Below are positions 40,690-54,592 of a DNA stretch of 64,000 nt, piece after piece. The DNA is from an uncultured bacterium. GTDB lineage: Bacteria; Planctomycetota; UBA1135; GCA-002686595. The notes under the pieces are model-generated. The model made no database searches. It was given only the letters and a program-made list of their open reading frames with translations, and had not been told where the DNA came from. Where the stretch lies: the NCBI GenBank assembly GCA_943787795.1, contig CALSNU010000002.1, positions 288,001 to 352,000 on the forward strand, given 5' to 3'. The stretch's first letter is position 1, and the number at the start of each line of letters is the position of its first letter. The position numbers were made by a program, and so were the translations under genes.

Positions 40690-43600
40690 TCAGTTCCGCT
40701 CGACCCACTGCTGGGCGATCGTCCGCAGGTCGATCTCGGCCCCGTCATCGGCGCCGAAGTACCGGCGTTCAATCTGGAGCACCGTCGCGTCCAGCTCCCG
40801 CTGCGTGGCGCTGTCCATGTGGTTCGCCCGGCGGACCTCGCCCAGGAGGGAGAGCACGGTCACGGGGGTGATCTCGTCCGGGAGGCTCGGACCGGCGGTC
40901 TCGGCGTCCTGGGCCCCATCCTCCCTGGGGCGCAGCAGCCAGGCCGCCGCGCCGCCCAGAGCGAGGAGCAGCAGCCAGGGCCACGCCGAGCGGCCTCCCT
41001 CGGCTCCATAGTCGCTGCCAAGCTGGACCACCATCTCGGCGGTCATCAGGTCGGCGTCGTCGTAGCGCTGGAAGACGGCCTGGGTGTCCGCCTCGAGGGG
41101 CGCCGCGAACTGGAACTCGATGGGCGTACCGGCACCCTCGCGAGCCTCCATCTCCACCACCCAGAGGCGCTCGGACACCACGGCCTCCTCGTCGTCGGCG
41201 AAGCGGACCACGGACACGCCCTGCCCCTCGGTCTTGGTGACCTCGAAGCCCTCGGGGGCGAGGTCGACGATCTGATCCAGCTCGGGCACGAGCCCGTTGG
41301 CCTGGGCCTTCACCTCGAGGGTGAGGACGCCCTCGTCCGCGCGGCGTTCGTCAAGGATCTGGGTGACCTGCAGGTTCTCGTGGGGCCGGGTCCCGCCGCC
41401 CGCCGAGGCGTCGATGGCGACCACCGGCGAGGTCACGGGGAGGACCACGTAGCCGGTCACGTCATTGAAGTCGAGGTCCAGCTTCAGGGGCGGGACCCGG
41501 TCCACCGCCGCGTCGCGGGCCGTGGCGAGCACGTAGGCGTAGGGGGTCCGCCGCCAGCCGTAGTCGTCATCGGCCTTCGAGGCGGCGTCCTCGCGGTTGA
41601 AGGTGACGGACACCACGTCGAACTGCTCGCCGAGGGTCGCGCGCACGGACTCCTCGAACTTGTCCCGGTAGTTCTCCTGGGGCCGGCCGTAGTTGTAGTA
41701 GCTGTTGACCGCGTTGGCCTGGTTCTGAAGGTACTTGGCGAAGCCGCCGCTCTCGCGGGCGATCTCCTTGGTGTACCGGATGTCGACCTTGATCCCGAAG
41801 GGCTCCGTGCCGACGTCAGCCGAGCCGTCCACCGCGGTCACCAGCTCGATCTCGGTCACGAGGTCGGCGTAGTAGTCGTAGACCCGGCGCGCGGCCTTGG
41901 CCTGCGGGTGATCACCAACGACCTCGAAGCCCGCCTCGAGGAAGCGGTTCTTGCAGGCGGGGTTCACGCTGCTCAGGCGCGTGAACAGGTTGTTCGCGAA
42001 CATCGCGAGGTGGGCCTCGGCGGCCTCGCCCCCGATATCCTCGAGCATGTCAGAGATGAGCGGGATCTCCTTGCGCACCAGGATCGTCTCCTGGTCCACG
42101 GCCGCGAGGTCGGTCGCGCCGAGGGCCGAGTTGAACCACAGATCGAAGACCTGGGTGGAGTACTCGGAGGGCTTCAGGTCAGGCACCGACTCGACGTAGT
42201 GCAGCGCGGCCTCCCCGAAGAGGTCCAGGGCAGCTCGGCGCCCGCCGGCGAAGTCAGAGCTCTTCTGGAGCTTGTTGCGGTAGTTGTTCAGGTCGTGCAT
42301 CAGCGACGCGCGGGCCGCCTCGAGCTGCCAGGCGCCCACGTGGGCCTCGATGGCCCCGTCCAGCATGGCCGACGCGAGCTCGTAGCCCCGCTGGACCTCG
42401 GCCTCGATGTCCTTCTGCTTGCGGTTGGTGCCCGCGTTCTTCTGGACCTCGGGGGAGCGCCAGATCGTGGCGAGGTTGGCCCGCATGGTCTGGGCCATGG
42501 AGGCGAGGGTCTCGGGGTCGAGGGTCTCGAGGTCGCCAAAGACCCTCTCCATCACCTCGACGCGGTAGATCTCGGCCGCGCTGTGGCTCTGGATGAAGGC
42601 GCGAACCAGGAGCTTAGAGTCCACCTCGACGCCCTCCACTGCGCGCAGCCGCGCCACCCACTCGGAGAGGTCCTCGAGGTTCCGCTCCTGCTTGCTCCGG
42701 GTCAGCGGGATGCCGCTCGCGCGCTGATTGAAGCCGTAGGAGTAGTTGTAGATGTTCGACCGATTGCGGCTCGCGTTCGGGTCGTTGTTCTGGATCCAGA
42801 CGTCCATGAACGAGCGGGCGAGCTCGTTGGCCTTCTTCGGGTTCGAGGCCGCCAGGTCACGGATGAACGGGAAGGCGAGCTTCTCCTCGCCGACCTTCAG
42901 GTAGAGCTCCGCGATGGTCTGATCCACCTTGGGCCGAAGGCTCTCCGGCAGCGCGTCGCGCCAGCCGCCGTCCGGGCGGACCGCGAGCAGGTCGTCCGGC
43001 TCGATGGGGTTCACCGGGCGGTTGTAGTTGTTGTAGCGGTAGCTGTTGTCCTCCCAGTAGATGTTGCCGAAGGCGTCCCGGCGGGTGATCGGGCCCATGG
43101 AGGACTGCTCGGAGTTCTCGTAGGAGTACGCCGCCTCACGGAGCCACGCGTCGGAGAGCAGGACCAGCGTGGGCCGCCACTCCCCCGCGCGCTCGGGGGC
43201 GACCTCGAGCAGAGCGTCCACCGACTCGCGCATGAGCTTCAGGTCCGCGAGGCGGTCCTGGGGACGCGTCGAGCGCTGCACCATCCCCTTGGAGGCCTCG
43301 GCGCCGATGGTGGCGAGCACCTCCATGCCGCGGTCCGGCCGGTCGGTGAACGTCTCCCGGATCCACTCGGAGCCCTTCTCCCCGCCCACGACGCCCGCGT
43401 ACTGAACGGCGCGCTTGAGGGCCTCCCCTTTCAGGTTGTCCTTCAGCTCCCCCGGCGCGAGAACGGCGAGGTTGGCCTCCCAGGCACTGGCGAGCACCTC
43501 AGGGTCGAGCTCCGCCTTGTAGAGGGCGATCCGGTAGCGCGCGATGAGGTTGAGGGCCTCACGGTTGTCGTTGGAGAGCGCGTCCGTGAAGGGCGGCAGG

Positions 43601-44802
43601 AAGGGCTTGAGGTGGATGTCCTGGCGTTGGGCGCTGAGGAGCCAGGCCGCGAACATCGGCTTGACCACCCGCTCCTCCGGCGCCCGCTGGACCTCCATCT
43701 GCAAGCGCGCGACCCAGTCGTCGATGCTGTGCCCCTGGGCGAAGACCCGGGCCACCAACGGCGCGAGCATCCTGGCGTCGGCCGCGGTGAAGCCGCCCGG
43801 CGCGATCCGCATCAGCTCGATGATGTCGTCGAACTCGAAGGCGCACTGCTCCTGGTACTGGTTGAAGCGACCGTTCACCGGCTGCGGGGGCCGCGCGATC
43901 TTCGGCAGCATCTGGGTGTAGATCTGGCGACCGCTCTTGCCCAGGGAATCCAGGGCCGCCTCCACATCCTCCCAACGACCGAGGGTCACGTCGCGCTGGA
44001 AGAGCTGCACGTCTCTTGTGAGCCGCTTGGTGGCGAGCGCCTTGCGCTCCTTCTCCACCCGAGACTTCTCCTTCTTGTAGGCCTTGTGGGCCTCGTTCGA
44101 CGCGTTGTAGGCGGCGAGGTCCGCGTCGTAAGCTGCCTGCAGCTCGGCGTCCGACGCTTCAGCCGCCTGATAGGCCGCGAGGGCCTCGGCGTGGTCCTCC
44201 GCGTCGTGGTCCTCTTCAGCCTCCTGCTTGGCCTTGGCGAGCGCCGCGAGGTCCGCCACGGACCCCACCGGAGCCACCAGCTCCGAGGGAGCCACGGGAC
44301 GCTCGAGGGCCTGCAGCTTGGGCGCCTTCGGCTTCTTCGGCTTGGGCGCCGGCTCCTCCGGCATGGGCGGGTCCTGGAGCTCGGGGTCCTCCGCCGAGGT
44401 CAGCGGAGCCGCCTTGGACCATTCGGCGAGGATCTTGGAGGGCGTGCGGTCGAGGATGGCCTGCTGGAACTTCTGGACGCGCTTGGGGTCGACGGGCTTC
44501 TCCTCCTTCGGGCTCACCTTGGCCCCTGGGCCTCCCGGTGCGGCTCCCAGCATCTCCGCGGGGGGCTCGGGGACCTCCACATCCTCCAGGACGACGACGC
44601 CGCCGGTGGACGAACCCATGGTCATCGCAGGCATCATCTGCACCGGCGCCGTGGTGACCATGATCGGCGCGGCGCCCGTGGAGCCGCTGACGATCACCTT
44701 GGAGGAGAGGCTGATGCCCTGGACCGCGCTCTGCTGGGCGAGAGAGAGCGGGGCGAGGGCGACCGATGCGGCGGCGAAGGCCGCGAGGGTGAGACGGGAC
44801 AT
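40690..44802 (-). CDS. Large (~1370 aa) exported, C-terminally membrane-anchored protein of the MoxR/vWA operon
   Basis: Signal peptide MSRLTLAAFAAASVALAPLSLA, Pro/Lys linker, long helical region, beta-rich C-terminal domain, TM helix WPWLLLLALGGAAAWLL; host codon bias. Confidence 0.85.
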   Translation of the reverse strand: MSRLTLAAFAAASVALAPLSLAQQSAVQGISLSSKVIVSGSTGAAPIMVTTAPVQMMPAMTMGSSTGGVVVLEDVEVPEPPAEMLGAAPGGPGAKVSPKEEKPVDPKRVQKFQQAILDRTPSKILAEWSKAAPLTSAEDPELQDPPMPEEPAPKPKKPKAPKLQALERPVAPSELVAPVGSVADLAALAKAKQEAEEDHDAEDHAEALAAYQAAEASDAELQAAYDADLAAYNASNEAHKAYKKEKSRVEKERKALATKRLTRDVQLFQRDVTLGRWEDVEAALDSLGKSGRQIYTQMLPKIARPPQPVNGRFNQYQEQCAFEFDDIIELMRIAPGGFTAADARMLAPLVARVFAQGHSIDDWVARLQMEVQRAPEERVVKPMFAAWLLSAQRQDIHLKPFLPPFTDALSNDNREALNLIARYRIALYKAELDPEVLASAWEANLAVLAPGELKDNLKGEALKRAVQYAGVVGGEKGSEWIRETFTDRPDRGMEVLATIGAEASKGMVQRSTRPQDRLADLKLMRESVDALLEVAPERAGEWRPTLVLLSDAWLREAAYSYENSEQSSMGPITRRDAFGNIYWEDNSYRYNNYNRPVNPIEPDDLLAVRPDGGWRDALPESLRPKVDQTIAELYLKVGEEKLAFPFIRDLAASNPKKANELARSFMDVWIQNNDPNASRNRSNIYNYSYGFNQRASGIPLTRSKQERNLEDLSEWVARLRAVEGVEVDSKLLVRAFIQSHSAAEIYRVEVMERVFGDLETLDPETLASMAQTMRANLATIWRSPEVQKNAGTNRKQKDIEAEVQRGYELASAMLDGAIEAHVGAWQLEAARASLMHDLNNYRNKLQKSSDFAGGRRAALDLFGEAALHYVESVPDLKPSEYSTQVFDLWFNSALGATDLAAVDQETILVRKEIPLISDMLEDIGGEAAEAHLAMFANNLFTRLSSVNPACKNRFLEAGFEVVGDHPQAKAARRVYDYYADLVTEIELVTAVDGSADVGTEPFGIKVDIRYTKEIARESGGFAKYLQNQANAVNSYYNYGRPQENYRDKFEESVRATLGEQFDVVSVTFNREDAASKADDDYGWRRTPYAYVLATARDAAVDRVPPLKLDLDFNDVTGYVVLPVTSPVVAIDASAGGGTRPHENLQVTQILDERRADEGVLTLEVKAQANGLVPELDQIVDLAPEGFEVTKTEGQGVSVVRFADDEEAVVSERLWVVEMEAREGAGTPIEFQFAAPLEADTQAVFQRYDDADLMTAEMVVQLGSDYGAEGGRSAWPWLLLLALGGAAAWLLRPREDGAQDAETAGPSLPDEITPVTVLSLLGEVRRANHMDSATQRELDATVLQIERRYFGADDGAEIDLRTIAQQWVERN

Positions 44803-44928
44803 GGCGATCGGGAGGGTCACGGGCAGGTACATCAGGTTCGAACAACGGCGCCCATGGCGCGTGGTTTGGCGAGAGAGGCGGGACACGCCCCCCCCGCGCC
44901 CCCCCGGCGGAGGGGCATCTCCTCAAAC

Positions 44929-44979: not shown

Positions 44980-45108
44980 TCAGGACCCTGAACCGTCGGG
45001 CGGCGGACCACCGCTCGCGCCACGGGAATCAGAGGGCTTCTTTCCAGACTTGGGCTTGCCCCGACCGGGGCGCTTTCCGGAACCGTTTCAGGTCCCGTTG
45101 CCGCTTCA
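44980..45108 (-). other. Candidate recoded C-terminal extension with two in-frame TGA (putative Sec) codons and SECIS-like hairpins
   Basis: In frame with the 45711 CDS: TGA-SGNGT-TGA-NGSGKRPGRGKPKSGKKPSDSRGASGGPPPDGSGS-TGA; hairpins at 45079-45096 and 45042-45082. Confidence 0.55.
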
Positions 45109-45711
45109 TTGGTTGGGCAGGGGCAGGCCCTGCAGCTCCTCCAGGTCGAGCCTGGCGAGCTTGATGGAGGACTCGAGGTCCTCCATGTGGGTTCGAGCCG
45201 CTTGCTCGTCGCCGCGCGCCTCGGCGCGCTCGGCGAGCAGCCGGTAGCTCTGACGGGCGACCTCGGCCTCGGGCTCCCACTCCTCGCGGGAGTAGCCCTC
45301 CAGGCGCATCAGCCAGGTGTAGTAGTACTGGGCGTTGGCGAGCCCCTCGCGGGCCTCGTCCAGCATCGCGCCCTCGGAGGCCTCGAGCGGAGACAGCTCG
45401 TCGACGAGCCCCGAGAGCTCGGAGCGCGCCGCGATGAGATCGGAGGAGGCCAGCTTGGCCTTGGCCGCGCTCAGGCGAATGCGCCGCGCGCTCCGCTCGA
45501 GCGCCGGGGTGTCGAGGCCCGGCAGGCTCTTGAGCGCCGCGTCGTAGTGCTCCACCGCGAGCGCCCAGTCCTTGGCTTCGGCGGCCTCGCGCGCGGCCGA
45601 GAGTTCGGCGTCCACGAGGTCGAGCTGGACGCCGTCCTGGCCCGGGCCTTCGTGGTAAGCCCACGCTCCCACAGGGAGCAGGAGCCAGCCGGCGATCATG
45701 AATCGTCTCAT
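45106..45711 (-). CDS. TPR-like membrane-anchored/exported protein of the MoxR/vWA operon (likely extends to 44980 by UGA recoding)
   Basis: N-terminal hydrophobic MRRFMIAGWLLLPVGAWAYH, TPR-like helices, LANAQYYYTWLMRLEG; the ORF stops at LQGLPLPNQ-TGA. Confidence 0.8.
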   Translation of the reverse strand: MRRFMIAGWLLLPVGAWAYHEGPGQDGVQLDLVDAELSAAREAAEAKDWALAVEHYDAALKSLPGLDTPALERSARRIRLSAAKAKLASSDLIAARSELSGLVDELSPLEASEGAMLDEAREGLANAQYYYTWLMRLEGYSREEWEPEAEVARQSYRLLAERAEARGDEQAARTHMEDLESSIKLARLDLEELQGLPLPNQ

Positions 45712-45803: not shown

Positions 45804-46805
45804 TCAAGAGCGGGTGAGTTCGCCCGGGGCGCCTCGCCAGGAGGTTCTACGGTGGGCCCAGGGGCTCCCGAGGGCCCGCAGCAGCGGCGGCAGCAGCGCG
45901 AGGAGCAGGGCGCCGAGCACCAGCGCCAGGAGGGCGTACTCGCGACGACCGAGCTTGAGCGCCGCCTCCCGGTCCGCCCCCGCGGTCACGGTCCGGAGCA
46001 CCTCGCTGGCCACCTGGCGCTTGTTCCCGTCGTGGTACTGGCCGCCCAATCGGAGCGCCATCTGACGCAGGGCGGACACATCCTGACGGGAGTTCCGCCC
46101 GTTGATGAAGCTGCCCTTCGTGGGGTCGCCGATCCCGACCACGAGGACGCCCCCGATGGCGGGCGGCATCTTCGGCATGCCGGTGGGCGGGAGGGTGTCG
46201 CCGTCGCTGGCCACGATGAGGGTGGTGCTCCCCGGCTCCCAGGGAGCCGCGATGCGCGCCGCCTCCTCGAGCCCGTCGAACAGGCGCGTCTCGCCGGACT
46301 TGAAGGCGAAGTGCATGGGGAGGTCGCTCAGCACATTGCGCACGACCTCGGAGTCCGAGGTGTCCACCACCACCGGCATGGCGCCGGTGTAGGTGGCGAT
46401 GATCGAGATCTTGTACTGCCCGATGGCGACCCGCCCGAAGATCGAGTCCAGCACGTCCCGGGCGCGACCGGTGCGGCTCTGGGCCGCGTCGGGCCCGGCG
46501 TCCTCGAGGCGCATGGAGGGTGAGACGTCGAGGACCAGCACCAGGTGCTTCCACTCGTCCGGCCCCTTGTCCACCAGCCGGTGGGCCTTGGGCTTCACGT
46601 CCAGCAGCAGGCTCGAGAGTCCGAAGGCCAGCGCCGCCGCACCCGCGGCCCGGAGCAGCGGCACCACCTGGACCCAGGCGGCCGCGCGGCCTCCGGGCCC
46701 GAACGCGAGGTGACGCACGCGGCGGATCCGGCGCAGGTGCAGGAGCTCTCCGCCCAATACGAGGGCGAAGGCCGCCGCCGTGAGGATCATGGTCCAGTCG
46801 CTCAT
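45804..46805 (-). CDS. vWA domain membrane protein (BatB-like)
   Basis: MIDAS DVSPSM, T, SDGD; TM helices at both ends. Confidence 0.88.
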   Translation of the reverse strand: MSDWTMILTAAAFALVLGGELLHLRRIRRVRHLAFGPGGRAAAWVQVVPLLRAAGAAALAFGLSSLLLDVKPKAHRLVDKGPDEWKHLVLVLDVSPSMRLEDAGPDAAQSRTGRARDVLDSIFGRVAIGQYKISIIATYTGAMPVVVDTSDSEVVRNVLSDLPMHFAFKSGETRLFDGLEEAARIAAPWEPGSTTLIVASDGDTLPPTGMPKMPPAIGGVLVVGIGDPTKGSFINGRNSRQDVSALRQMALRLGGQYHDGNKRQVASEVLRTVTAGADREAALKLGRREYALLALVLGALLLALLPPLLRALGSPWAHRRTSWRGAPGELTRS

Positions 46806-46812
46806 CGCAGGA

Positions 46813-47751
46813 TCACCACGGCGTGGCCCTCAAGAACAGCTGGAGCAGGGCGTGGGCGGCGAGGGCGATCAGCCCGATCCAGCACCACAGCCCGAAGTCG
46901 TCGAGCTGCTCACCGGCGACCTTCTCGAGCTCGGCCACCTGCATCTGATCGATGCGCTTGAACACCGTCTCGAGCGCCACGGGGTCGCCGGCGGCGAACA
47001 TCTCCCCCCCGGTCAGGGAGGCGATGTTGAGCACCTCGCCGGGCACGTTGCCGTCCGCCACGTGGACCCCGTAGACCGTCACGCCGCTCTTCTTCAGCCG
47101 ATCCGCGATCACCTCATCTTGGCCGCCGGAGAGGTCCGACGAGAACCCGTCGGAGATCAGGATGATCATCCGATCTCCCTCCTCGCGGCTCGCCAGCACG
47201 TCGCGGCAGGCGTTCAGCGCCTTGCCGATGGACGTCCCCCCGAACCAGGGCGGCAGGGCGCCCCGCTTGGGGTCCATGAAGGGCGGCGCACAGCGGAAGG
47301 CGCTGGTGTCGTTGGTGAGCGGGCACCAGTGCAGGACGTTGTTCCCGAAGAAGGTCAGCCCGAAGGCGTCGCCGTCCCGGAAGTCCAGGAACTCGTTGAT
47401 GGCCTCCATCGCGGCGTCGTAGCGGGTCCCCTCCCCGAACGAGGCGGTCATGGAACCGGACACGTCCACGCAGAACTGAATGTTGGTGAGCTTGCGCTTG
47501 GTGGAGGGCGCGCCGATCTTCTGGGGGCCAGCGAGGAGCACCACGGCCACCGCGAGCAGCAACGGCGACACGGACTCCGCGAGCCGCAGCAGGACCGAGA
47601 GCCCGAGCCCACGCGACCGCCGGTCGGCCCGGGCGGTGCCGTCAAAGGGCAATGCCAGGCGTCCCCCCTTGCCGGACCAGACGAGGGTCAGCAGCAGCAG
47701 CGGAATCGCCAGCAGGGCGAGGGCCCAGGGGTGACCGAAGCTCAGGCTCAT
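46813..47751 (-). CDS. vWA domain membrane protein (BatA-like)
   Basis: BatA-type N-terminus SFGHPWALALLAIP, MIDAS DVSGSM, GTSIG, ISDG. Confidence 0.9.
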   Translation of the reverse strand: MSLSFGHPWALALLAIPLLLLTLVWSGKGGRLALPFDGTARADRRSRGLGLSVLLRLAESVSPLLLAVAVVLLAGPQKIGAPSTKRKLTNIQFCVDVSGSMTASFGEGTRYDAAMEAINEFLDFRDGDAFGLTFFGNNVLHWCPLTNDTSAFRCAPPFMDPKRGALPPWFGGTSIGKALNACRDVLASREEGDRMIILISDGFSSDLSGGQDEVIADRLKKSGVTVYGVHVADGNVPGEVLNIASLTGGEMFAAGDPVALETVFKRIDQMQVAELEKVAGEQLDDFGLWCWIGLIALAAHALLQLFLRATPW

Positions 47752-48605
47752 CCCCGGTCTCCCCCGGGATCAGGCGTCCCGCGATAGGGGGCGAGGAGCG
47801 CCTCGAGGTCCACGGCGTCCCCCTCTGAGCCCGGGCGGTGGAGCCAGCGTTCGAGCTGGAGGAAGAGCGGTCCGGCCTCCTCGTCTGCGCGGAGCAAGGC
47901 CACCGCCTCGGCGACCGGGGTGGCGCTCAGGTTTCGACGGTCGCGCCAGTGGGCCAGCAGGAGCCGCTCCAGCTCCGCCTGCTGGGCGGTGTCGAGGTCG
48001 CCCGATCGCGCGCGCTCCACCAGGGGCGCGAGTCGATCGGCGAGGGTCAACGGCGCCTCGGGTCCGGCGCTATTGGCCGCGTCCTGGCGTCGGCGCCCGA
48101 CGGTCATGAGCGCCACCAGGCCCGCGGCCCAGAGGATCCCCAGGACGGTCATGCCTGTGCCGTAGCCCCCCACCCCATCCGGCGCGGGGACCTCGAGCTC
48201 GTTGGGCTCGACCACGTCCACCGGCAGCAGGGCCTCGACCTCGATCTTCAGGGTCGGCGGATCCCAAGTGGCGCCCGCCTCGGCGGGCTCCAGCAGGCTC
48301 GCGAGGTTCAGGGTCCCCTCCACCAGGGGGGTCACCTCGAGGTTGTAGCGCCACCCCGAGCCGTGGGGGAAGACGTTGAGCACCCGCACGATGGCGTCCG
48401 CGCGCCCAGGATCCGCCACCGGCTTGGCCCGGAGCCGTGGCCCGGCAATCGGCTGCTCCTCGATCCGCACCCGCATGCCCACGGAGGTGCGGGCGACGGG
48501 TTCAGACTGGGGGGCGCGCGGGGCCGAGGCCCCCAGCGGCGGGGCGCTGGCCGCGAGCGGCGGGGCCAGCAGCGCACCGAGCAGGAAGGTGGTGGCGAAC
48601 ATCAT
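47748..48605 (-). CDS. Exported/membrane hypothetical protein of the Bat-like operon
   Basis: Signal peptide, beta-rich domain, TM helix, C-terminal LERWLH; translationally coupled on both sides. Confidence 0.75.
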   Translation of the reverse strand: MMFATTFLLGALLAPPLAASAPPLGASAPRAPQSEPVARTSVGMRVRIEEQPIAGPRLRAKPVADPGRADAIVRVLNVFPHGSGWRYNLEVTPLVEGTLNLASLLEPAEAGATWDPPTLKIEVEALLPVDVVEPNELEVPAPDGVGGYGTGMTVLGILWAAGLVALMTVGRRRQDAANSAGPEAPLTLADRLAPLVERARSGDLDTAQQAELERLLLAHWRDRRNLSATPVAEAVALLRADEEAGPLFLQLERWLHRPGSEGDAVDLEALLAPYRGTPDPGGDRG

Positions 48606-49492
48606 CGTCCTCCCGCGAGTACGGCGCGGTCCTTGAGGAACAGCCTGAGGGACTGGGCGTAAGGTTGATCGGTGCGGATCAGAAGGTGGTCGATCCCGCC
48701 CCTGCGGAGCTCCTGGCGGGCGGCCTCGGGATCGAAGCGCTGGCGGCGGCCGTGGGTCACGAACTCCGCCCCGCTCTCGGCCTCCTCCGCGCGCAGGAAG
48801 CCCGCGCCGCGCAGCTCGACCTCCGCGGGGTCCTGGAGCTGGAGCACGACGACGTCGTGCACCTGCGCCATGAGCTTCAGGGCGTCCATGGCCTCCGGCT
48901 CGTGCAGGTCACTCAACACGAACACGAGCGCCCGATTGCTGAGCCGGGCGTTGAGCTCCGTGACCCGCCGGGCGAGCGTCGTCCGCTCACCCTCGCTGTA
49001 CGTCCGGAGCTTCACGAGCCACTGCATGACCTCGTCCTTGGCGAGGCTCGGCTGGACCCGCAGGTCGCGCTCGCCGGTCCCCAGGAGCCCTACCGGGCTC
49101 ACCCGATCCAGGCAGGCGAAGGCCAGCCCGCCCGCGATCTGCGCCGCGACCTCATACTTGCTGAGGCGCGTCGAAGAGAGGGTCATGGACCCCGAGGTGT
49201 CGAACAGGATCCACGCCGGCATCCGCTTGGGGGCCTCGTATTCCTTGATGTGCACCTCACCCGTGCGCGCCGTCACGCGCCAGTCAATCGCCCGCACGGG
49301 GTCGCCCGGGACATACGGGCGAGACTGCACGTACTCGAGGCCCGAGCCCAGGAACCGCGAGCGGTCCGTGCCGTGGCTGAGAGTGTCCGCCAGGCGCCGA
49401 ATGGCGACCTGGTAGCGCCGCGTGTCGAGCGGATCAACCGCGGGCAGCGTGTGCTCCGGCGCGGCGCGCCGGGGGGCTCCGGTACGCTCCAT
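48602..49492 (-). CDS. DUF58 domain protein
   Basis: GSGLEYVQSRPYVPGDPVRAIDWRVTAR, KEYE, DTSGSM, LSD. Confidence 0.93.
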   Translation of the reverse strand: MERTGAPRRAAPEHTLPAVDPLDTRRYQVAIRRLADTLSHGTDRSRFLGSGLEYVQSRPYVPGDPVRAIDWRVTARTGEVHIKEYEAPKRMPAWILFDTSGSMTLSSTRLSKYEVAAQIAGGLAFACLDRVSPVGLLGTGERDLRVQPSLAKDEVMQWLVKLRTYSEGERTTLARRVTELNARLSNRALVFVLSDLHEPEAMDALKLMAQVHDVVVLQLQDPAEVELRGAGFLRAEEAESGAEFVTHGRRQRFDPEAARQELRRGGIDHLLIRTDQPYAQSLRLFLKDRAVLAGGR

Positions 49493-49496
49493 GGCC

Positions 49497-50507
49497 TCAG
49501 GCAGCGCCCAGCTCGCCCAGCATCTCCTGGAGGATGACCGAGGTGTCCCGGCCCTCCGCCAGCGCCTCGTAGGTGGCGCGGATGCGGTGCAGGATGACGT
49601 CCTCGGCGAGGGCAAAGAGATCCTCGGGGATCACGTAGTCGCGGCCGTGGATGAGCGCCCGGGCCCGGGAGGCCTTGACCAGCGCGATGCCCGCCCGGGG
49701 CGACGCGCCGAGTTCCAGCTCGGGGTGCTTGCGGGTGCGGTCGACGATCTCCATCACGTGCTCGATGAAGGCCTCGGAGACGTGAACCTTGGAGACGTCC
49801 TCCATGGCACGGGCCAGCTCGTCACGCCCGCCGACGCTGCCCTGGTCCACCATGTCGAACTCGGTCTTGACGGTGGCGCCGCCGCTCTTGTCCCGCTGGA
49901 TACCGAGCTTCGCGTTCCGACGCAGGACCTCCTTCTCGTCCTCGTTGGTCAGGTATTGGAGGCGGTGCAGGAGCATGAAGCGGTCCAGCTGCGCCTCGGG
50001 CAACTCGAAGGTCCCCGCCTGCTCCACGGGGTTCTGGGTCGCGATCACGAGGAACGGAACCGGCAGGCCGTAGTTCTGGTTGCCGATGGTGATCCGCCGC
50101 TCCTGCATGGCCTCGAGGAGCGCGCTCTGCACCTTGGGCGCGGCGCGGTTGATCTCGTCGGCGAGGAGCAGGTTGGTGAAGATCGGCCCCTTGTGCGTTT
50201 TGAACGTCTGGTCCCGCTGGTCGAGGATCTCGGACCCGAGGATGTCCGAGGGGAGCAGGTCGATCGTGAACTGGATCCGCGCGAAGTCGAGGTCCACGGT
50301 CTTCGAGACCGCCGCCACCAGGAGGGTCTTGGCGAGGCCTGGGACGCCCTCCAACAGGAGGTGTCCCCCGGTCAGGAGCGCGATGAGGATCCGCTCCACC
50401 ACCACCTCCTGGCCGACGACCACCCGGCCGACGCGCTCCTTGATCTCGCCCAGGAAGCGGGCCGTATCGTCAAACTGGGGGGCGGGAGGGCGCTCGATCG
50501 TCGTCAT
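49497..50507 (-). CDS. moxR: MoxR family AAA+ ATPase
   Basis: LEGVPGLAKT, RIQFT.DLLPSDI, LADEINRA, ATQNPVEQAGTFELPEAQLDRF, GASPR. Confidence 0.96.
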   Translation of the reverse strand: MTTIERPPAPQFDDTARFLGEIKERVGRVVVGQEVVVERILIALLTGGHLLLEGVPGLAKTLLVAAVSKTVDLDFARIQFTIDLLPSDILGSEILDQRDQTFKTHKGPIFTNLLLADEINRAAPKVQSALLEAMQERRITIGNQNYGLPVPFLVIATQNPVEQAGTFELPEAQLDRFMLLHRLQYLTNEDEKEVLRRNAKLGIQRDKSGGATVKTEFDMVDQGSVGGRDELARAMEDVSKVHVSEAFIEHVMEIVDRTRKHPELELGASPRAGIALVKASRARALIHGRDYVIPEDLFALAEDVILHRIRATYEALAEGRDTSVILQEMLGELGAA

Positions 50508-50949
50508 GGGAAGGGATAGCTGGTGAGGCTCGGCGCGAGGCCGGGCTTCCTGGGGCTGAAACGGGGTCGGATCAGACCCGGCGCCGCTCGGGCAGGGGCG
50601 GGGAGGTCCGATCGGGGTCACATTGCAGCAGCGAGGTCGCCGAGCCAGGGGGCTGAGTCGGGTTCCAGGCGCCTGCGTTCGCCGGGGTCACCGACCCTAC
50701 GCGGCGCGCCGCAGGTGGGTTACGTCCCCATCCTGGATTGTGTTGGCCCGGGCACAGTTTGGCCCGGCTTCGAGCCCGCCCGAAATCCCGCGCCTGTGGC
50801 ATGGTCGGGGCACCCTCCGCCGCTGGCTCATCCCCTGGATTTGCGGAAGTTCTCGAAGATCCCGACCGACAAACGCATGGAGGGCTCGGCCGTACGACTC
50901 GACGGCCACGCTTAGCCCCACGACCACTCGCAACCCAACCACCTCTCCC

Positions 50950-52083
50950 ATGCTCTCGCTTATCACTGCCCTGATTGCAAGCGCGGCGCCCGTTCCGCCC
51001 GCCACCGCACCGCTCACCACCTTCCAAGACGACGACCGCCGCCGGGATGAACTCCGCGCGGAGGCCCGCGATGTCGAGCGGATGATCAAGGAGCTCCACG
51101 AGAGGCTCGGCTGGATCGAGCGAGAGATGGAGGAGCTCGACCGGCACCACGAGGAGCATCACGGCGAGGAGCATCGTGAGCGGCGGGTGATCGTCATGGA
51201 CCTCGGCGATGAAGGCCGCGAGAGGCAGATCCTCATCGATGGGGAACACTCCGAGCTCATCGAGCGGCTCGTGGAGGAACTCATGGAGCGCGAGGAGCGC
51301 CACGAGGATCATCACGACGACCACGGGGATCATGAAGACCATGGCGACCATGATGACCACGACGGACATCACGAGGATCACCACGACGATCATCACGACG
51401 GGCATCACGACGGGCATCACGACGGCCGGGACCACGAGGAGCATCACGAGGTGCGCGGGTTCGAGTTCCCCGGTGGGCACGGCGAGGTGCACATCCGGAT
51501 GGAGATGGAAGGCGAGGACGAGATGGAATTCGACCTCGGGGAGCTCCTCTCCGAGTTCGGCTTCGGCGACCACGACCTGGGGGGCCGAGAGATCCACATG
51601 GAGGTGGAGATCGAGAGCGAGGGGGACCACGGCGAGGAAGGTGAGCACCATGAGCGCCACGTGGAGCGACGGATCATCCACGTCGGTGGCAACGACCGGG
51701 AGCGCGGCGCGCGGCGCCGCGCTCGACGCCTCCCGTCCGGTGGCATCATCGAACTCGAGGCCGTGGACCAGAGCGACGACCTCGGTGGCCTCATCTTTGA
51801 GGCCGGCCCGATCGGCATCGACGTCATCGAGCTCGACGGCTCGGAGTTCATCGAGTTCGGCGACGCTCCGGAGCCTTCGCGGGTCGTGGAGCCGCGCGAG
51901 CGCCGGGAAGAGCGCGGAGCTCGCGGGGGACAGCAGCAGCGCCGCCGAGAGCGCGCGATGGAGCAGCGCGGGCGCGGCATGCCTCCGGAGGCCATGCAGG
52001 CCCTCCGGGAGCTCCAGGAGGAGGTCCGCGCGATGCGTCGAGAGATGAACGAGATGCGTCAGCGCTTCGACCGACGCGACTAG
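50950..52083 (+). CDS. Secreted His/Asp/Glu-rich low-complexity protein with terminal coiled coils
   Basis: Signal peptide MLSLITALIASAA, tract HEDHHDDHGDHEDHGDHDDHDGHHEDHHDDHHDGHHDGHHDG; host codon bias; terminator downstream. Confidence 0.8.
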   Translation: MLSLITALIASAAPVPPATAPLTTFQDDDRRRDELRAEARDVERMIKELHERLGWIEREMEELDRHHEEHHGEEHRERRVIVMDLGDEGRERQILIDGEHSELIERLVEELMEREERHEDHHDDHGDHEDHGDHDDHDGHHEDHHDDHHDGHHDGHHDGRDHEEHHEVRGFEFPGGHGEVHIRMEMEGEDEMEFDLGELLSEFGFGDHDLGGREIHMEVEIESEGDHGEEGEHHERHVERRIIHVGGNDRERGARRRARRLPSGGIIELEAVDQSDDLGGLIFEAGPIGIDVIELDGSEFIEFGDAPEPSRVVEPRERREERGARGGQQQRRRERAMEQRGRGMPPEAMQALRELQEEVRAMRREMNEMRQRFDRRD

Positions 52084-52138
52084 GACTGGACCCAGCTCCC
52101 GGCCCCCCGGGGCCCAGGAGTCCCGCGGGTTCCCGAGC

Positions 52139-52178
52139 AGGGCCCGCGCCGTTCCCGACGGCGCGGGCCCTTGTTATT
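52139..52178 (+). terminator. Intrinsic terminator
   Basis: 14-bp stem agggcccgcgccgt / acggcgcgggccct followed by tgttatt. Confidence 0.8.
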
Positions 52179-52267
52179 GGCTGCCCCCCCACTCGCCCGG
52201 CCGCGCTGCGGCTAGACTGGTGCGCCAAAAAGCCCCGACGAGCAGCCACGCGACCCCCATCACGGCC

Positions 52268-54592
52268 ATGACGATCCAAGCCCAACCGACCCTCGCCGAT
52301 TTCCAGCCCCACTTCGCCAAGTGGGAGATCGTGGGCGACCTGATCGACCAGTCGATCGACCTGATGCTCAACATCCGTCAGAGCGGGCACCCGGGCGGCT
52401 CACGCTCCAAGGTCCCCATGATGGTCGCCACGACCCTGGGCCCGGGGATGCGCTGGGACGTCCGCCACCCGGAGAACCCGTTCGGCGACCGCTACGTGCT
52501 CGTGGCAGGGCACTGCAACCCGGGGACCTACGCGATGCTCGCGGTCTACAACGAGGCCCTCCGCATCATGCATGAGCGGACCGGGGACGATCGCTATCTC
52601 GTGCCCAACGCGGCCGAGCGCATGCTCACCTGGGAGGACCTGCTCCGCCTTCGTCATAACGGCGAGCTCCCCGGCCACGCAGAGATGGAGGGCAAGACCC
52701 TCTTCTTCAAGTTCAACACCGGCCCGAGCGGGCACGGCGCGCCGGCCGCCCTCGGGGAGGCCGTGGCCCTCAAGCATGCGGGCAGCGACACCCGTGTCTT
52801 CGCCGTCGAGGGCGAGGGCGGGCACACAGCGGGCTGCCACCACGAGGTCAAGAACTCCGCCTACGGCCTGGGCCTCGATAACCTGATCTACCTGTTCGAC
52901 TGGAACGACCACGGCATCGATTCGTTCGCCAACTCCGAGGTCGCCCACGGGACGCCCAAGGAGTGGTTCGAGCCCTACGGTTGGCGCGTGGCCGGCGCCG
53001 AGGACGGCCATGACTTCGAGCAGATCACGAGCGCGCTGCTCGAGATCGTCCACGCCGAGGACACCCAGGGCCGCCCCGGCTGCGTCTGGTTCAAGACCCG
53101 CAAGGGCCGCGGCTACGGCATCTATGACGCCGCCTCCCACGGCAAGTCCCACGGCCGCAACTCCGAGGGCTTCTGGGCCTGCCGGGAGGCGTTCGCCAGC
53201 AAGTACGGCGTGACCTTCGAGGGTCACGGCGACACCACCGACCCGGGCGAGGACGGCTGCCGCGAGCAGTCGCGCGGCTGGTTCGAGACCGTGTTCAGCG
53301 TCCTCCGCAACACCGAGGGGCTCGCGGAGTACGTGGCCAACACCCTGCTTGGCCTCGGGGAGTCCATCCCGGCGAAGCCCGAGGGACTGCGCCTGGACCC
53401 CGCCAAGAACATGCACGAGGACCGCAGCTGGCTCGACCAGCTGCCCGAGGAGCTGTTCCTCCCCGTCGGTGCCAAGGCCGCCAACAAGGACGGCTTCGCC
53501 AAGTTCGGCTCCTGGGTCAACAGCCTCGCCAAGGAGCGCATGGGCCGGCCGCTCGTGCTCGCCTGCTCGGCGGACCTCGCCGACTCCACCGCCATCAGCG
53601 GCTTCGCCAAGGACTTCGGAGACAAGAAGAGCTTCGGCTGGTACGAGCGCAACTCGAACACCGAGGGCTCGCTCCTGCCCCAGCAGATCACCGAGTTCAC
53701 GAACGCCGGCCTCGTGGTGGGCGCCGCGACGGTGAACATGAGCGCGACCCCCGAGGACGCCTTCATGGGCTACTGGGGCGCGTGCTCCACCTACGGCAGC
53801 TTCTCCTACCTCAAGTACGGGATGATGCGGCTCTTCAGCCAGCTCGCCCAGGACTGCGAGCTGAAGGTCGGTAAGGTCATCTGGGTCGCGGGCCACTCCG
53901 GCCCCGAGACCGCGGAGGACAGTCGCACCCACTTCGGCATCTTCTCACCGGTGGTCACCCAGCTCTTCCCCGAGGGTCACGTGATCAACCTGCGCCCCTG
54001 GGAGCACAACGAGGTCGCCCCCGCCCTCGCCGCCGCGCTCAAGACGGACGTCCCCATCATCGCCCTGCACCTCACCCGGCCCGGCGTCGTGATCCCCGAC
54101 CGCAAGGCCCTGGGCATCCCGAGCCACATAGAGGCCGCCAAGGGCGCCTACGTGCTCCGCGACTACGACACGAGCCGCCCCAAGGAGGGCACGCTCATCG
54201 TCGAGGGCACCTCGACCATGGAGTCAGTCCTCGAGCTCCTGCCGAGCTTCCACGACGGGAGCGCGCCGAACTGCAAGATCGTGGCCACCTCCAGCTACGA
54301 GCTCTTCATGGCCCAGCCCAAGGAGTACAGGGACACCGTGCTGCACAAGTCGGACTGGCTCGACAGCACCGTCATCTCCAACGGCAGCCGCATCGGGATG
54401 CACCCCTGGCTCTCGACCAAGGTCGCCGAGCAGTACGCCATGACGAGCGACCACGACGATCGCTGGCGCACCGGCGGCTCGATCCCCGAGGTCAAGGCCG
54501 AGGCCAAGATTGACGCCGCGAGCCTCCTCGAGGGCATCAAGCGCTTCGCCGGCGACCGCGAGGAGCGGCTCGGGCGGCTGCACTACGTCTAG
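52268..54592 (+). CDS. Transketolase-family ThDP-dependent enzyme (divergent)
   Basis: SGHPGGS, VLVAGH, LPGH, NTGPSGHG, GW...DGHD, KTRKGRG, SADLADST, HSG...AEDSRTH. Confidence 0.85.
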   Translation: MTIQAQPTLADFQPHFAKWEIVGDLIDQSIDLMLNIRQSGHPGGSRSKVPMMVATTLGPGMRWDVRHPENPFGDRYVLVAGHCNPGTYAMLAVYNEALRIMHERTGDDRYLVPNAAERMLTWEDLLRLRHNGELPGHAEMEGKTLFFKFNTGPSGHGAPAALGEAVALKHAGSDTRVFAVEGEGGHTAGCHHEVKNSAYGLGLDNLIYLFDWNDHGIDSFANSEVAHGTPKEWFEPYGWRVAGAEDGHDFEQITSALLEIVHAEDTQGRPGCVWFKTRKGRGYGIYDAASHGKSHGRNSEGFWACREAFASKYGVTFEGHGDTTDPGEDGCREQSRGWFETVFSVLRNTEGLAEYVANTLLGLGESIPAKPEGLRLDPAKNMHEDRSWLDQLPEELFLPVGAKAANKDGFAKFGSWVNSLAKERMGRPLVLACSADLADSTAISGFAKDFGDKKSFGWYERNSNTEGSLLPQQITEFTNAGLVVGAATVNMSATPEDAFMGYWGACSTYGSFSYLKYGMMRLFSQLAQDCELKVGKVIWVAGHSGPETAEDSRTHFGIFSPVVTQLFPEGHVINLRPWEHNEVAPALAAALKTDVPIIALHLTRPGVVIPDRKALGIPSHIEAAKGAYVLRDYDTSRPKEGTLIVEGTSTMESVLELLPSFHDGSAPNCKIVATSSYELFMAQPKEYRDTVLHKSDWLDSTVISNGSRIGMHPWLSTKVAEQYAMTSDHDDRWRTGGSIPEVKAEAKIDAASLLEGIKRFAGDREERLGRLHYV

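Follow-up and report, generated by a model that had tools for sequence, protein, structure and literature searches.

A read-through frame at the end of a MoxR/vWA gene cluster

We analysed a window of 64,000 nucleotides (nt) from an uncultured member of the Planctomycetota (GenBank assembly GCA_943787795.1, contig CALSNU010000002.1, positions 288,001 to 352,000; GC content of the window 68%), whose reverse strand carries, at 45711-44980, a gene predicted to encode a selenoprotein of 243 residues (Met1 to Ser243) with selenocysteine (Sec, U) at residues 202 and 208. According to the reading of its open reading frame (ORF), the gene starts at an ATG (45711-45709) and begins with a hydrophobic N-terminal segment, MRRFMIAGWLLLPVGAWA (45640-45711), a putative signal anchor or signal peptide whose topology was judged by eye from the charge distribution and which is followed by the invariant alignment columns Y-H-x-G-P-G-Q. 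A domain that a structure model and fold matches in the Protein Data Bank (PDB) suggest to be all-helical and similar to tetratricopeptide repeats (TPR-like) extends over 45109-45639 and ends in the conserved motif L-Q-G-L-P-L-P-x-Q. At this point the frame meets a first TGA (45108-45106, UGA1), where the product of gene callers ends after 201 residues. Read on, the frame passes through S-G-N-G-T to a second TGA (45090-45088, UGA2), then through 35 sense codons (NGSGKRPGRGKPKSGKKPSDSRGASGGPPPDGSGS), and reaches a third TGA, the predicted true stop, at 44982-44980. The tail closes with a conserved C-terminal end-piece, D-S-R-G-A-S-G-G-P-P-P-D-G-S-G-S (44983-45030), preceded by a linker rich in Gly, Lys and Arg. 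From the comparison with relatives given below, UGA1 (Sec202) is predicted to be a genus-specific extra Sec codon and UGA2 (Sec208) to be the counterpart of a single family-wide Sec codon.

A first-pass annotation had proposed a two-Sec protein at this place, and its account of the frame was confirmed by re-reading, as was the use of AAG for all five lysine codons of the extension. The perfect 17-bp hairpin that it had placed 13 nt past the third TGA was also found, at 44966-44929; it is terminator-like, with a GUGA loop and a folding energy of -51.7 kcal/mol (z -7.1). TGA is the ordinary stop elsewhere in the window, since all six neighbouring genes end in it, so that this codon is not reassigned in the genome.

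The region recurs in contigs of many marine metagenome runs, and four runs from four studies, one DNA and three RNA-library, were compared with it. An independent DNA contig spans 44900-45576 and one RNA-library contig spans 44900-45405, both with zero differences, and two further RNA-library contigs span both internal TGAs. All three TGA codons were free of differences in the compared contigs of the four runs; two differences were seen within the tail in independent contigs, a Lys to Asn change that also occurs in close relatives and a synonymous change at a Gly codon. Such contigs are uninformative on strand, transcript ends and translation, and RNA libraries can contain DNA. The internal TGAs are not an assembly error standing for TGC or TGT, as TGA is present in independent DNA and RNA-library contigs alike.

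The tail is conserved as protein

When the read-through protein was compared with 61 related genomes, matches were obtained in 28 of them, other genera and families included, and continued past the internal stops as far as the tail's last residues. The loci share one architecture, in which L-Q-G-L-P-L-P-x-Q is followed by a motif with Sec or Cys, a linker that is rich in Gly, Lys and Arg and varies in length, the end-piece and the stop. The end-piece, with the consensus D-A/S-R-G-A-x-x-G-P-P-P-D-G-S-G-S, stands directly before the stop across many planctomycete families; the stop itself varies, most loci having TGA and four TAG, and the sequences beyond it are unrelated. Homologs do not stop at P-L-P-x-Q with the coding signal ending there; they keep the tail up to G-P-P-P-D-G-S-G-S and the stop. 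In 16 representative sequences, the differences within the tail numbered 1580, 1437 and 2336 at the first, second and third codon positions, respectively, and the aggregate proportions of synonymous (pS) and nonsynonymous (pN) differences were 0.558 and 0.351 in the tail against 0.553 and 0.334 in the body. The ratio of nonsynonymous to synonymous rates (dN/dS) of the tail was 0.14-0.29 in five of six within-genus pairs and 0.55 in the sixth, and was higher (0.74 and 0.87) in two pairs from other lineages. Judged by comparison of sequences, the codon-position bias, the dN/dS values and the conserved architecture show that the tail must be translated in this frame under purifying selection. A general role of the end-piece as a sorting signal was considered and discarded, as a six-frame motif search of the genome matched this gene alone.

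The simplest alternative is ordinary termination at UGA1, with the 201-residue protein complete and the downstream frame a by-product of high GC content. Frames of this kind are indeed common. Genome-wide, the stop of an ORF of at least 200 codons has 35 or more open codons behind it in 63% of cases, and 487 of 9433 such ORFs (5%) show a TGA, at most ten codons, another TGA and at least 35 open codons; moreover, the neighbouring genes usually stop at TGA and every pipeline calls the short form. The TGA-TGA-open-frame pattern alone is not beyond chance, and the fold of the 59 nt after UGA1 is equally unexceptional (z -1.47; 17 of 200 shuffles were as stable). Because neither the ORF pattern nor the local fold does better than chance, the case rests on the comparison with relatives. 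There the picture differs: the tail is conserved across families, with third-position bias and a dN/dS like that of the body, homologs of the Cys form are continuous ORFs across the region, and conservation ends exactly at the third stop. Ordinary termination at UGA1 is, on this evidence, very improbable.

Selenocysteine and cysteine alternate at the TGA positions

When a sample of 401 Planctomycetota genomes from across the phylum was searched with a profile, 47 proved to hold the family; the match contains an in-frame TGA in 33 of these and none in the remaining 14. Both kinds of homolog that the first-pass annotation had suggested looking for, those with Cys and those with a conserved TGA at the two positions, were present: the column of UGA1 in alignment A1 holds Cys or TGA in 22 of 22 sequences, and UGA2 is aligned with a Cys of another locus (L040). 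The commonest variant of the motif is U-x-G-C. U-x-G-S/T occurs in two genomes (as U-D-G-S and U-S-G-T), with a single Sec and no Cys nearby; C-U is confined to one family, in eight genomes, and includes G-C-U-Q-G; U-A-G-U was seen in one genome; and U-x5-U is found in 18 of 18 genomes of the window's genus and nowhere else. Among the Cys-rich forms are C-K-N-C-K-S-G-Q-C, C-K-G-C-C-S-G-E-C-Q-C, C-C-C-N-G-Q-C-K-G-G-A-C and C-x2-C-x4-C. In the protein database, the Cys forms are full-length (236-246 amino acids, aa), while entries for the Sec forms are only 197-206 aa long, cover 82% of the query and bear the name "hypothetical protein"; according to its source label, one truncated homolog of 206 aa derives from a cultured planctomycete strain. 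An exhaustive profile search returned 1256 representative clusters at E <=0.001, and about 31 of the best 150 of these, by hand count, stop immediately short of the motif, at profile position 195-198. These comparisons show the UGA positions to be exchangeable between predicted Sec and Cys across the family.

At one further locus, L085 (G228:C1:4647700-4649200), L-P-L-P is followed by neither Cys nor Sec and the tail is an acidic-basic repeat of the type (G-E)n / (K-G)n, so that the motif appears to be dispensable in at least one lineage.

The same alternation could be the mark of a decaying gene, in which nonsense mutations hit former Cys codons and left the tail as a remnant: the TGA sites match the Cys codons of homologs, and TGC to TGA is a single change. 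Against this, the same TGAs stand in all 18 genomes of the genus at a pS of ~0.4-0.5, TGA forms make up 33 of the 47 genomes with the family, the within-genus pairs described above indicate purifying selection on the tail, and a hairpin specific to the TGA forms co-occurs with them, as detailed below. Decay is the least probable of the explanations that we considered.

A hairpin with an invariant GGU loop accompanies the Sec forms

Downstream of UGA2 lies a hairpin that resembles a Sec insertion sequence (SECIS) element, GCCCC-GGUC-GGGGC (hairpin 2, 45058-45071), whose loop (45066-45063) occupies nt 25-28 from UGA2 and nt 43-46 from UGA1, positions being counted from the U of the UGA. Throughout the Sec forms a GC-rich stem with a GGUC loop follows the UGA, the loop of the C-U family being GGUUC. 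By a strict rule that demands at least four uninterrupted pairs flanking the loop, within 66 nt, a GGUC/GGUUC hairpin was found in 41 of 44 distinct Sec-form sequences and in none of nine Cys forms; the three misses bear the same hairpin with one internal mismatch, and six further Cys-type loci that were not anchored by the search pattern stand outside this count. In an alignment of 43 sequences, which includes five pentaloop rows out of register, the six-pair stem is 88% paired and compensatory changes affect five of the six pairs. The covariation score was 0.467, compared with an average of 0.141 in column shuffles, none of 500 of which reached the observed value, and with at most 0.118 in slid controls. 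The stems vary in sequence and in the encoded peptide, as in CGCCCC/GGGGCG (R-P-G-R-G), GGCCUC/GAGGCC (G-L-G-R-G), CGACCC/GGGUCG, GGCCGC/GCGGCC (G-R-G-R-G) and GGCC/GGCC (A-G-R-P), and the G-G-U of the loop is invariant in 43 of 43 sequences even though its U falls on a synonymous third position. The loop starts at nt 25 from the UGA in most forms; two have it at nt 31 and the C-U family at nt 22. For the U-A-G-U genome, with its two UGAs, the start is nt 31 when counted from the first and nt 22 when counted from the second. In the sequences compared, a predicted hairpin with an invariant GGU loop is thereby shown to accompany the UGA in the Sec forms only. The first-pass annotation had drawn hairpin 2 with an additional outer stem, UUCCGGA/UCUGGAA; the inner stem and loop proved to be family-wide, whereas the outer stem is not conserved in relatives.

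The element recalls that of Escherichia coli fdhF, for which the relevant part of PMC8659212 describes a stem-loop spanning nt 15-31, whose loop includes G23 and U24 and in which U17 is bulged. In the C-U forms (L078-L083, one family with genomes of ~3 Mb), the UGA lies one codon further downstream and the loop GGU falls at nt 22-24, the same numbering as G22-G23-U24 of fdhF.

The window's genus carries a second UGA and a second hairpin

Aligned from the hairpin side, the UGA2 unit of the window, UGA-AAC-GGU-UCC-GGA-AAG, equals the UGA-AAG-GGU-UGC-GGA-AGC of other genera at 14 of 18 bases, and UGA2 keeps the 25-nt distance to the GGUC loop that is seen in those genera. The match and the distance together indicate that the UGA1 unit, UGA-AGC-GGC-AAC-GGG-ACC, is a six-codon insertion after L-P-L-P-x-Q. 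In the window's genus the former Cys codon UGC is UCC (Ser), and this G-to-C change completes the pairing of another hairpin, CGGGACC-UGAAAC-GGUUCCG (hairpin 1, 45078-45097), which lies at nt 12-31 from UGA1, has UGA2 inside its loop and occurs in this genus only. Hairpin 1 is present in 12 of 12 distinct genus sequences aligned; its top pair is lost in three of them, two of which gain two basal pairs. Both hairpins fall within the minimum free energy fold. The claim that each internal UGA is followed by a hairpin holds as far as the two structures are concerned, both of which are there as described, but they are not of one kind, hairpin 1 being genus-specific and having no GGU loop. We know of no described protein with a U-x5-U spacing.

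The genome encodes the selenocysteine machinery and further candidate Sec genes

The genes whose presence the first-pass annotation had proposed to check (selA, selB, selC and selD) are represented in the genome by selA (456 bits), selB (328 bits, plus a C-terminal piece) and selD (327 bits), all above curated cut-offs, and by a tRNA-Sec of 69 bits against a gathering score of 47. Among the other genomes tested, 30 of the 31 with TGA forms have a selA match, as do 9 of the 16 with Cys forms or with forms that have no Cys; the seven selA-less genomes of the latter group are all at least 97% complete and none has a TGA form.

Recoding of the UGAs might also proceed without selenium, either through a near-cognate or suppressor tRNA (for Trp, Cys or Gly) or at a stop whose regulated leakiness gives a short and a long isoform, the hairpin stimulating read-through. 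Hairpins close to stop codons can have such an effect, and bacterial Sec insertion is usually inefficient, so that the short isoform is likely to be made as well; in addition, hairpin 1 is unlike the other SECIS candidates. What separates the two possibilities is that TGA alternates specifically with Cys, the signature of Sec, that TGA forms track selA while selA-less genomes carry Cys forms, and that the invariant GGU loop matches the G23 and U24 of fdhF that contact SelB. Selenium-independent recoding is accordingly held to be improbable.

A genome-wide scan for a TGA followed by a GGUC hairpin gave 86 matches, most of them noise, with two credible genes, both outside the window. One encodes a DsbD-like membrane protein (G000:C2 ~476757-479857, reverse strand) with an in-frame TGA in T-U-V-V-C, 784 codons before it and 96 after it; downstream of the TGA comes the hairpin AAGAUGGA-GGUC-UCCAUCUU, the loop of which is at nt 24, and from these features the gene is likely to encode a selenoprotein. 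The other is a small exported thioredoxin-like ORF (G000:C6 ~415678-416218, forward strand), also a likely selenoprotein gene, with an in-frame TGA (A-E-G-U-G-N-T-A-S) and the hairpin GCGAGCGC-GGUC-GCGCUCGU, whose loop lies at nt 21. Independently of the scan, selD (L010, G000:C5:184757-188701; L001) has an in-frame TGA at the active-site position (C-A-G-U-A-A-K-M-P), ~360 nt downstream of selA on the same strand. Four AhpC/TSA or Thioredoxin_8-like genes outside the window (G000 C4:789449-789799, C1:753587-753940, C6:69274-69621 and C2:496583-496939) carry one in-frame TGA each in a W-U-G/P-P-C motif and are likewise likely to encode selenoproteins. Within the window, a reverse-strand frame upstream of the MoxR gene (50575-52800) was examined as a further Sec gene and rejected, as it looks like a shadow frame and not a gene.

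Proposed decoding of the two UGA codons

The conservation of the tail, the Sec/Cys exchange, hairpin 2 and the Sec machinery support the original proposal of a two-Sec protein, and it is very probable, from this body of sequence evidence, that 45711-44980 on the reverse strand encodes one selenoprotein of 243 residues in which both internal UGAs are read as Sec by SelB and tRNA-Sec. In the mechanism that we propose, the GGUC hairpin would be the SelB-binding SECIS for UGA2, from which it is 25 nt away, one codon beyond the 22-nt spacing of fdhF. In the window's genus, the six-codon insertion would have added UGA1, and the old resolving Cys would have become Ser (UGC to UCC), completing hairpin 1. 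UGA1 might then be decoded in either of two ways. Hairpin 1 could serve as its own SECIS, or the folded hairpin 1 could shorten the 43-nt path to ~25 nt, in which case the GGUC hairpin would serve UGA1 first and UGA2 once unwinding has taken place.

The arrangement has much in common with SelB/SECIS genes of the fdhF type: an in-frame UGA at the position of the Cys of homologs, a stem-loop inside the ORF with a G-G-U loop, and the presence of selA, selB, selD and tRNA-Sec. It differs from them in that the loop lies at nt 25 instead of 22, the stem is perfect and has no bulged U, two UGAs stand 18 nt apart in the window's genus, the family has no Pfam or NCBIfam match, and the Sec is in a disordered tail, not in the active site of an enzyme.

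Several observations, in addition to the chance-level ORF pattern and fold noted above, weigh against this interpretation. One TGA-form genome (G284, 83% complete) has no selA match. In the genome of the window, selD and the four genes with W-U-G-P-C are missing a clean GGUC tetraloop hairpin, which means that the GGUC loop is not universal there. The genomes compared are related, so that counts across them are not independent. Nothing reached the gathering score in an Rfam scan of the region, the weak matches falling on the terminator hairpin. Hairpin 2 encodes Gly-Arg-Gly-Arg-Gly, so that part of its self-complementarity could reflect a constraint on the peptide. As to UGA1, its 43-nt distance to the GGUC loop is beyond the other spacings of the family (22-31 nt); hairpin 1 shows one-sided changes only, no double compensatory changes and a loop that does not contain GGU, and synonymous conservation at hairpin 1 showed no significant excess (3 of 8 columns against 14 of 69, p 0.36).

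A TPR-like protein with a disordered arm in a Bat-like operon

No Pfam model (E up to 0.01) or NCBIfam model matches the protein, including the TPR and Bat models. An AlphaFold2 model built from a 22-row alignment (mean pLDDT 78.7, pTM 0.69) has an N-terminal helix and an all-helical domain at residues ~30-190 with a pLDDT of ~90, and its tail falls below 50 at residues 210-235 and 240-243, which agrees with the flexible C-terminal tail claimed in the first-pass annotation. The best PDB matches in Foldseek are the peptide-binding TPR domains of Hop TPR2A, Sgt2 and FKBP, at weak E values (0.02-0.1) and TM-scores to the target of 0.64-0.74. In a language-model look-up, a Cys-form relative fell among clusters from Planctomycetota and Verrucomicrobiota that are unnamed or called "TPR-like".

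The gene closes an operon on the reverse strand in the order MoxR, DUF58, transmembrane (TM) protein, vWA, vWA and selenoprotein gene. A MoxR-type AAA+ ATPase (49497-50621; AAA_3, E 7e-62, and AAA_lid_2) is followed by a DUF58 protein (48602-49615; E 8e-41) and, between this and the first vWA gene, by a 285-aa protein (47748-48605) that has a single TM segment besides its signal peptide, ends in a charged domain and matches no family. Two vWA membrane proteins come next, a BatA-like one (46813-47751) and, directly upstream of the selenoprotein gene, a BatB-like one (VWA_2; 45804-46805); one of the two shows a weak match to the BatA and BatB models. Of 20 homologous loci, 17 have a VWA_2 ORF immediately upstream, and in the other three the ORF was perhaps mis-picked. 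On the other side, directly downstream of the terminator, an ORF of 1398 aa (40690-44886, reverse strand) has no Pfam or NCBIfam match, and in close relatives, too, the next ORF after the gene begins with this signal-like peptide; the 1398-aa ORF could be one more cluster member, placed where BatD would be.

In its place in the operon, its N-terminal hydrophobic segment and its TPR-like helical fold the protein resembles BatC, a likeness of position and architecture only, and it differs in being matched by neither the TPR models of Pfam nor the Bat models of NCBIfam. By eye, the charges assign to the cytoplasm the N-terminus of the Sec protein and, in both vWA proteins, the C-termini and short loops; by the positive-inside rule, the periplasm would then hold the Sec arm together with the TPR-like and vWA domains. 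The sections of PMC3557215 on these systems describe Bat/MoxR-vWA operons as widespread and tied to aerotolerance and virulence, and MoxR as a proposed loader of metal into the MIDAS sites of vWA proteins. According to the same sections, a Bacteroides fragilis bat mutant was partly rescued by reducing agents, from which a reducing role in the periplasm was proposed, while bat mutants of Leptospira had no phenotype and Bat function was called elusive (PMC3557215).

The functional interpretation is much less certain than the decoding, its whole basis being motif analogy and gene neighbourhood. The arm and both vWA domains would face the periplasm. After L-P-L-P-x-Q, the disordered arm would present the Sec motif (U-S-G-N-G-T-U here), the Gly/Lys/Arg linker and the conserved 16-residue end-piece, so that the selenol or selenol/thiol motif may act as a mobile redox-active or soft-metal-binding arm of a Bat-like complex. 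The likeness of the motif to redox pairs, together with the proposed reducing role of Bat, favours redox chemistry, and we tentatively lean, at somewhat short of even confidence, towards a redox role for the arm, as a mobile selenol or selenol/thiol element of a Bat-like complex in the periplasm.

Selenium chemistry of this type has counterparts elsewhere. Mammalian thioredoxin reductase has a C-terminal G-C-U-G arm, and SelL a U-x-x-U diselenide. Like these, the window protein and its relatives carry Sec beside Cys or a second Sec on an unstructured segment, with U-x-G-C having the same spacing as CxxC and UxxC; unlike them, the window protein has no flavoprotein or thioredoxin fold, and ~35 more residues with the end-piece come after the motif. 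The W-U-G-P-C genes of the thioredoxin fold share with most relatives the U-x-x-C spacing, and with the window protein the genome and decoding machinery. Their motif sits at the N-terminus of a helix in the thioredoxin fold, whereas that of the window protein lies in a low-confidence coil after the TPR-like domain; no thioredoxin fold surrounds it, the model being all-helical.

The same selenoprotein could instead use its Sec/Cys cluster as a soft-metal site (for Cu, Zn, Ni or Fe) that delivers metal to, or senses it for, the MIDAS-containing vWA partners. The Cys-rich forms and their variable spacing are reminiscent of metal-binding clusters, and the MIDAS of vWA domains binds metal, for which MoxR is the loader proposed in the part of PMC3557215 cited above. 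The lone-Sec forms U-D-G-S and U-S-G-T would be poor chelators; in them one residue appears to suffice as a nucleophile. The C-U and U-x-x-C/U motifs, moreover, resemble redox pairs. A soft-metal site seems rather unlikely, but it is the chief functional alternative to the redox arm. As to the double UGA, we consider it possible, though doubtful, that the insertion gave the genus a second Sec codon 18 nt upstream together with hairpin 1, which would act as a SECIS of non-GGU type or as a collapsible spacer, and that the U-x5-U selenol pair of the product, possibly a diselenide, on a disordered periplasmic arm gives the Bat/MoxR-vWA envelope complex a redox activity of which it has long been suspected.

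Novelty and implications

We found no published description of this planctomycete selenoprotein of a MoxR operon. The main texts of a 2026 review (PMC13188914) and of the deep-Sep study (PMC12013277), the parts of these sources covered, contain none of the terms Planctomyc-, TPR, tetratricopeptide, von Willebrand and MoxR. Table S9 of PMC4807772 gives one unnamed "hypothetical" planctomycete Sec candidate with a Cys homolog in Rhodopirellula, which could be this family, although from that table it cannot be told. On the sequence evidence, the gene in all probability specifies an unannotated bacterial selenoprotein, the founder or a member of a new family for whose decoding the standard machinery serves.

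If so, a large protein family would be systematically shortened in databases wherever Sec is used. Within this one family, five motif solutions (UxxC, CU, UxxU, Ux5U and lone U) would be realised, and the window's genus would represent a natural experiment in the decoding of two closely spaced UGA codons. A Sec/Cys-exchangeable motif, a signature that usually marks redox chemistry, in a subunit that occupies the position of BatC may also offer a testable handle on Bat function.

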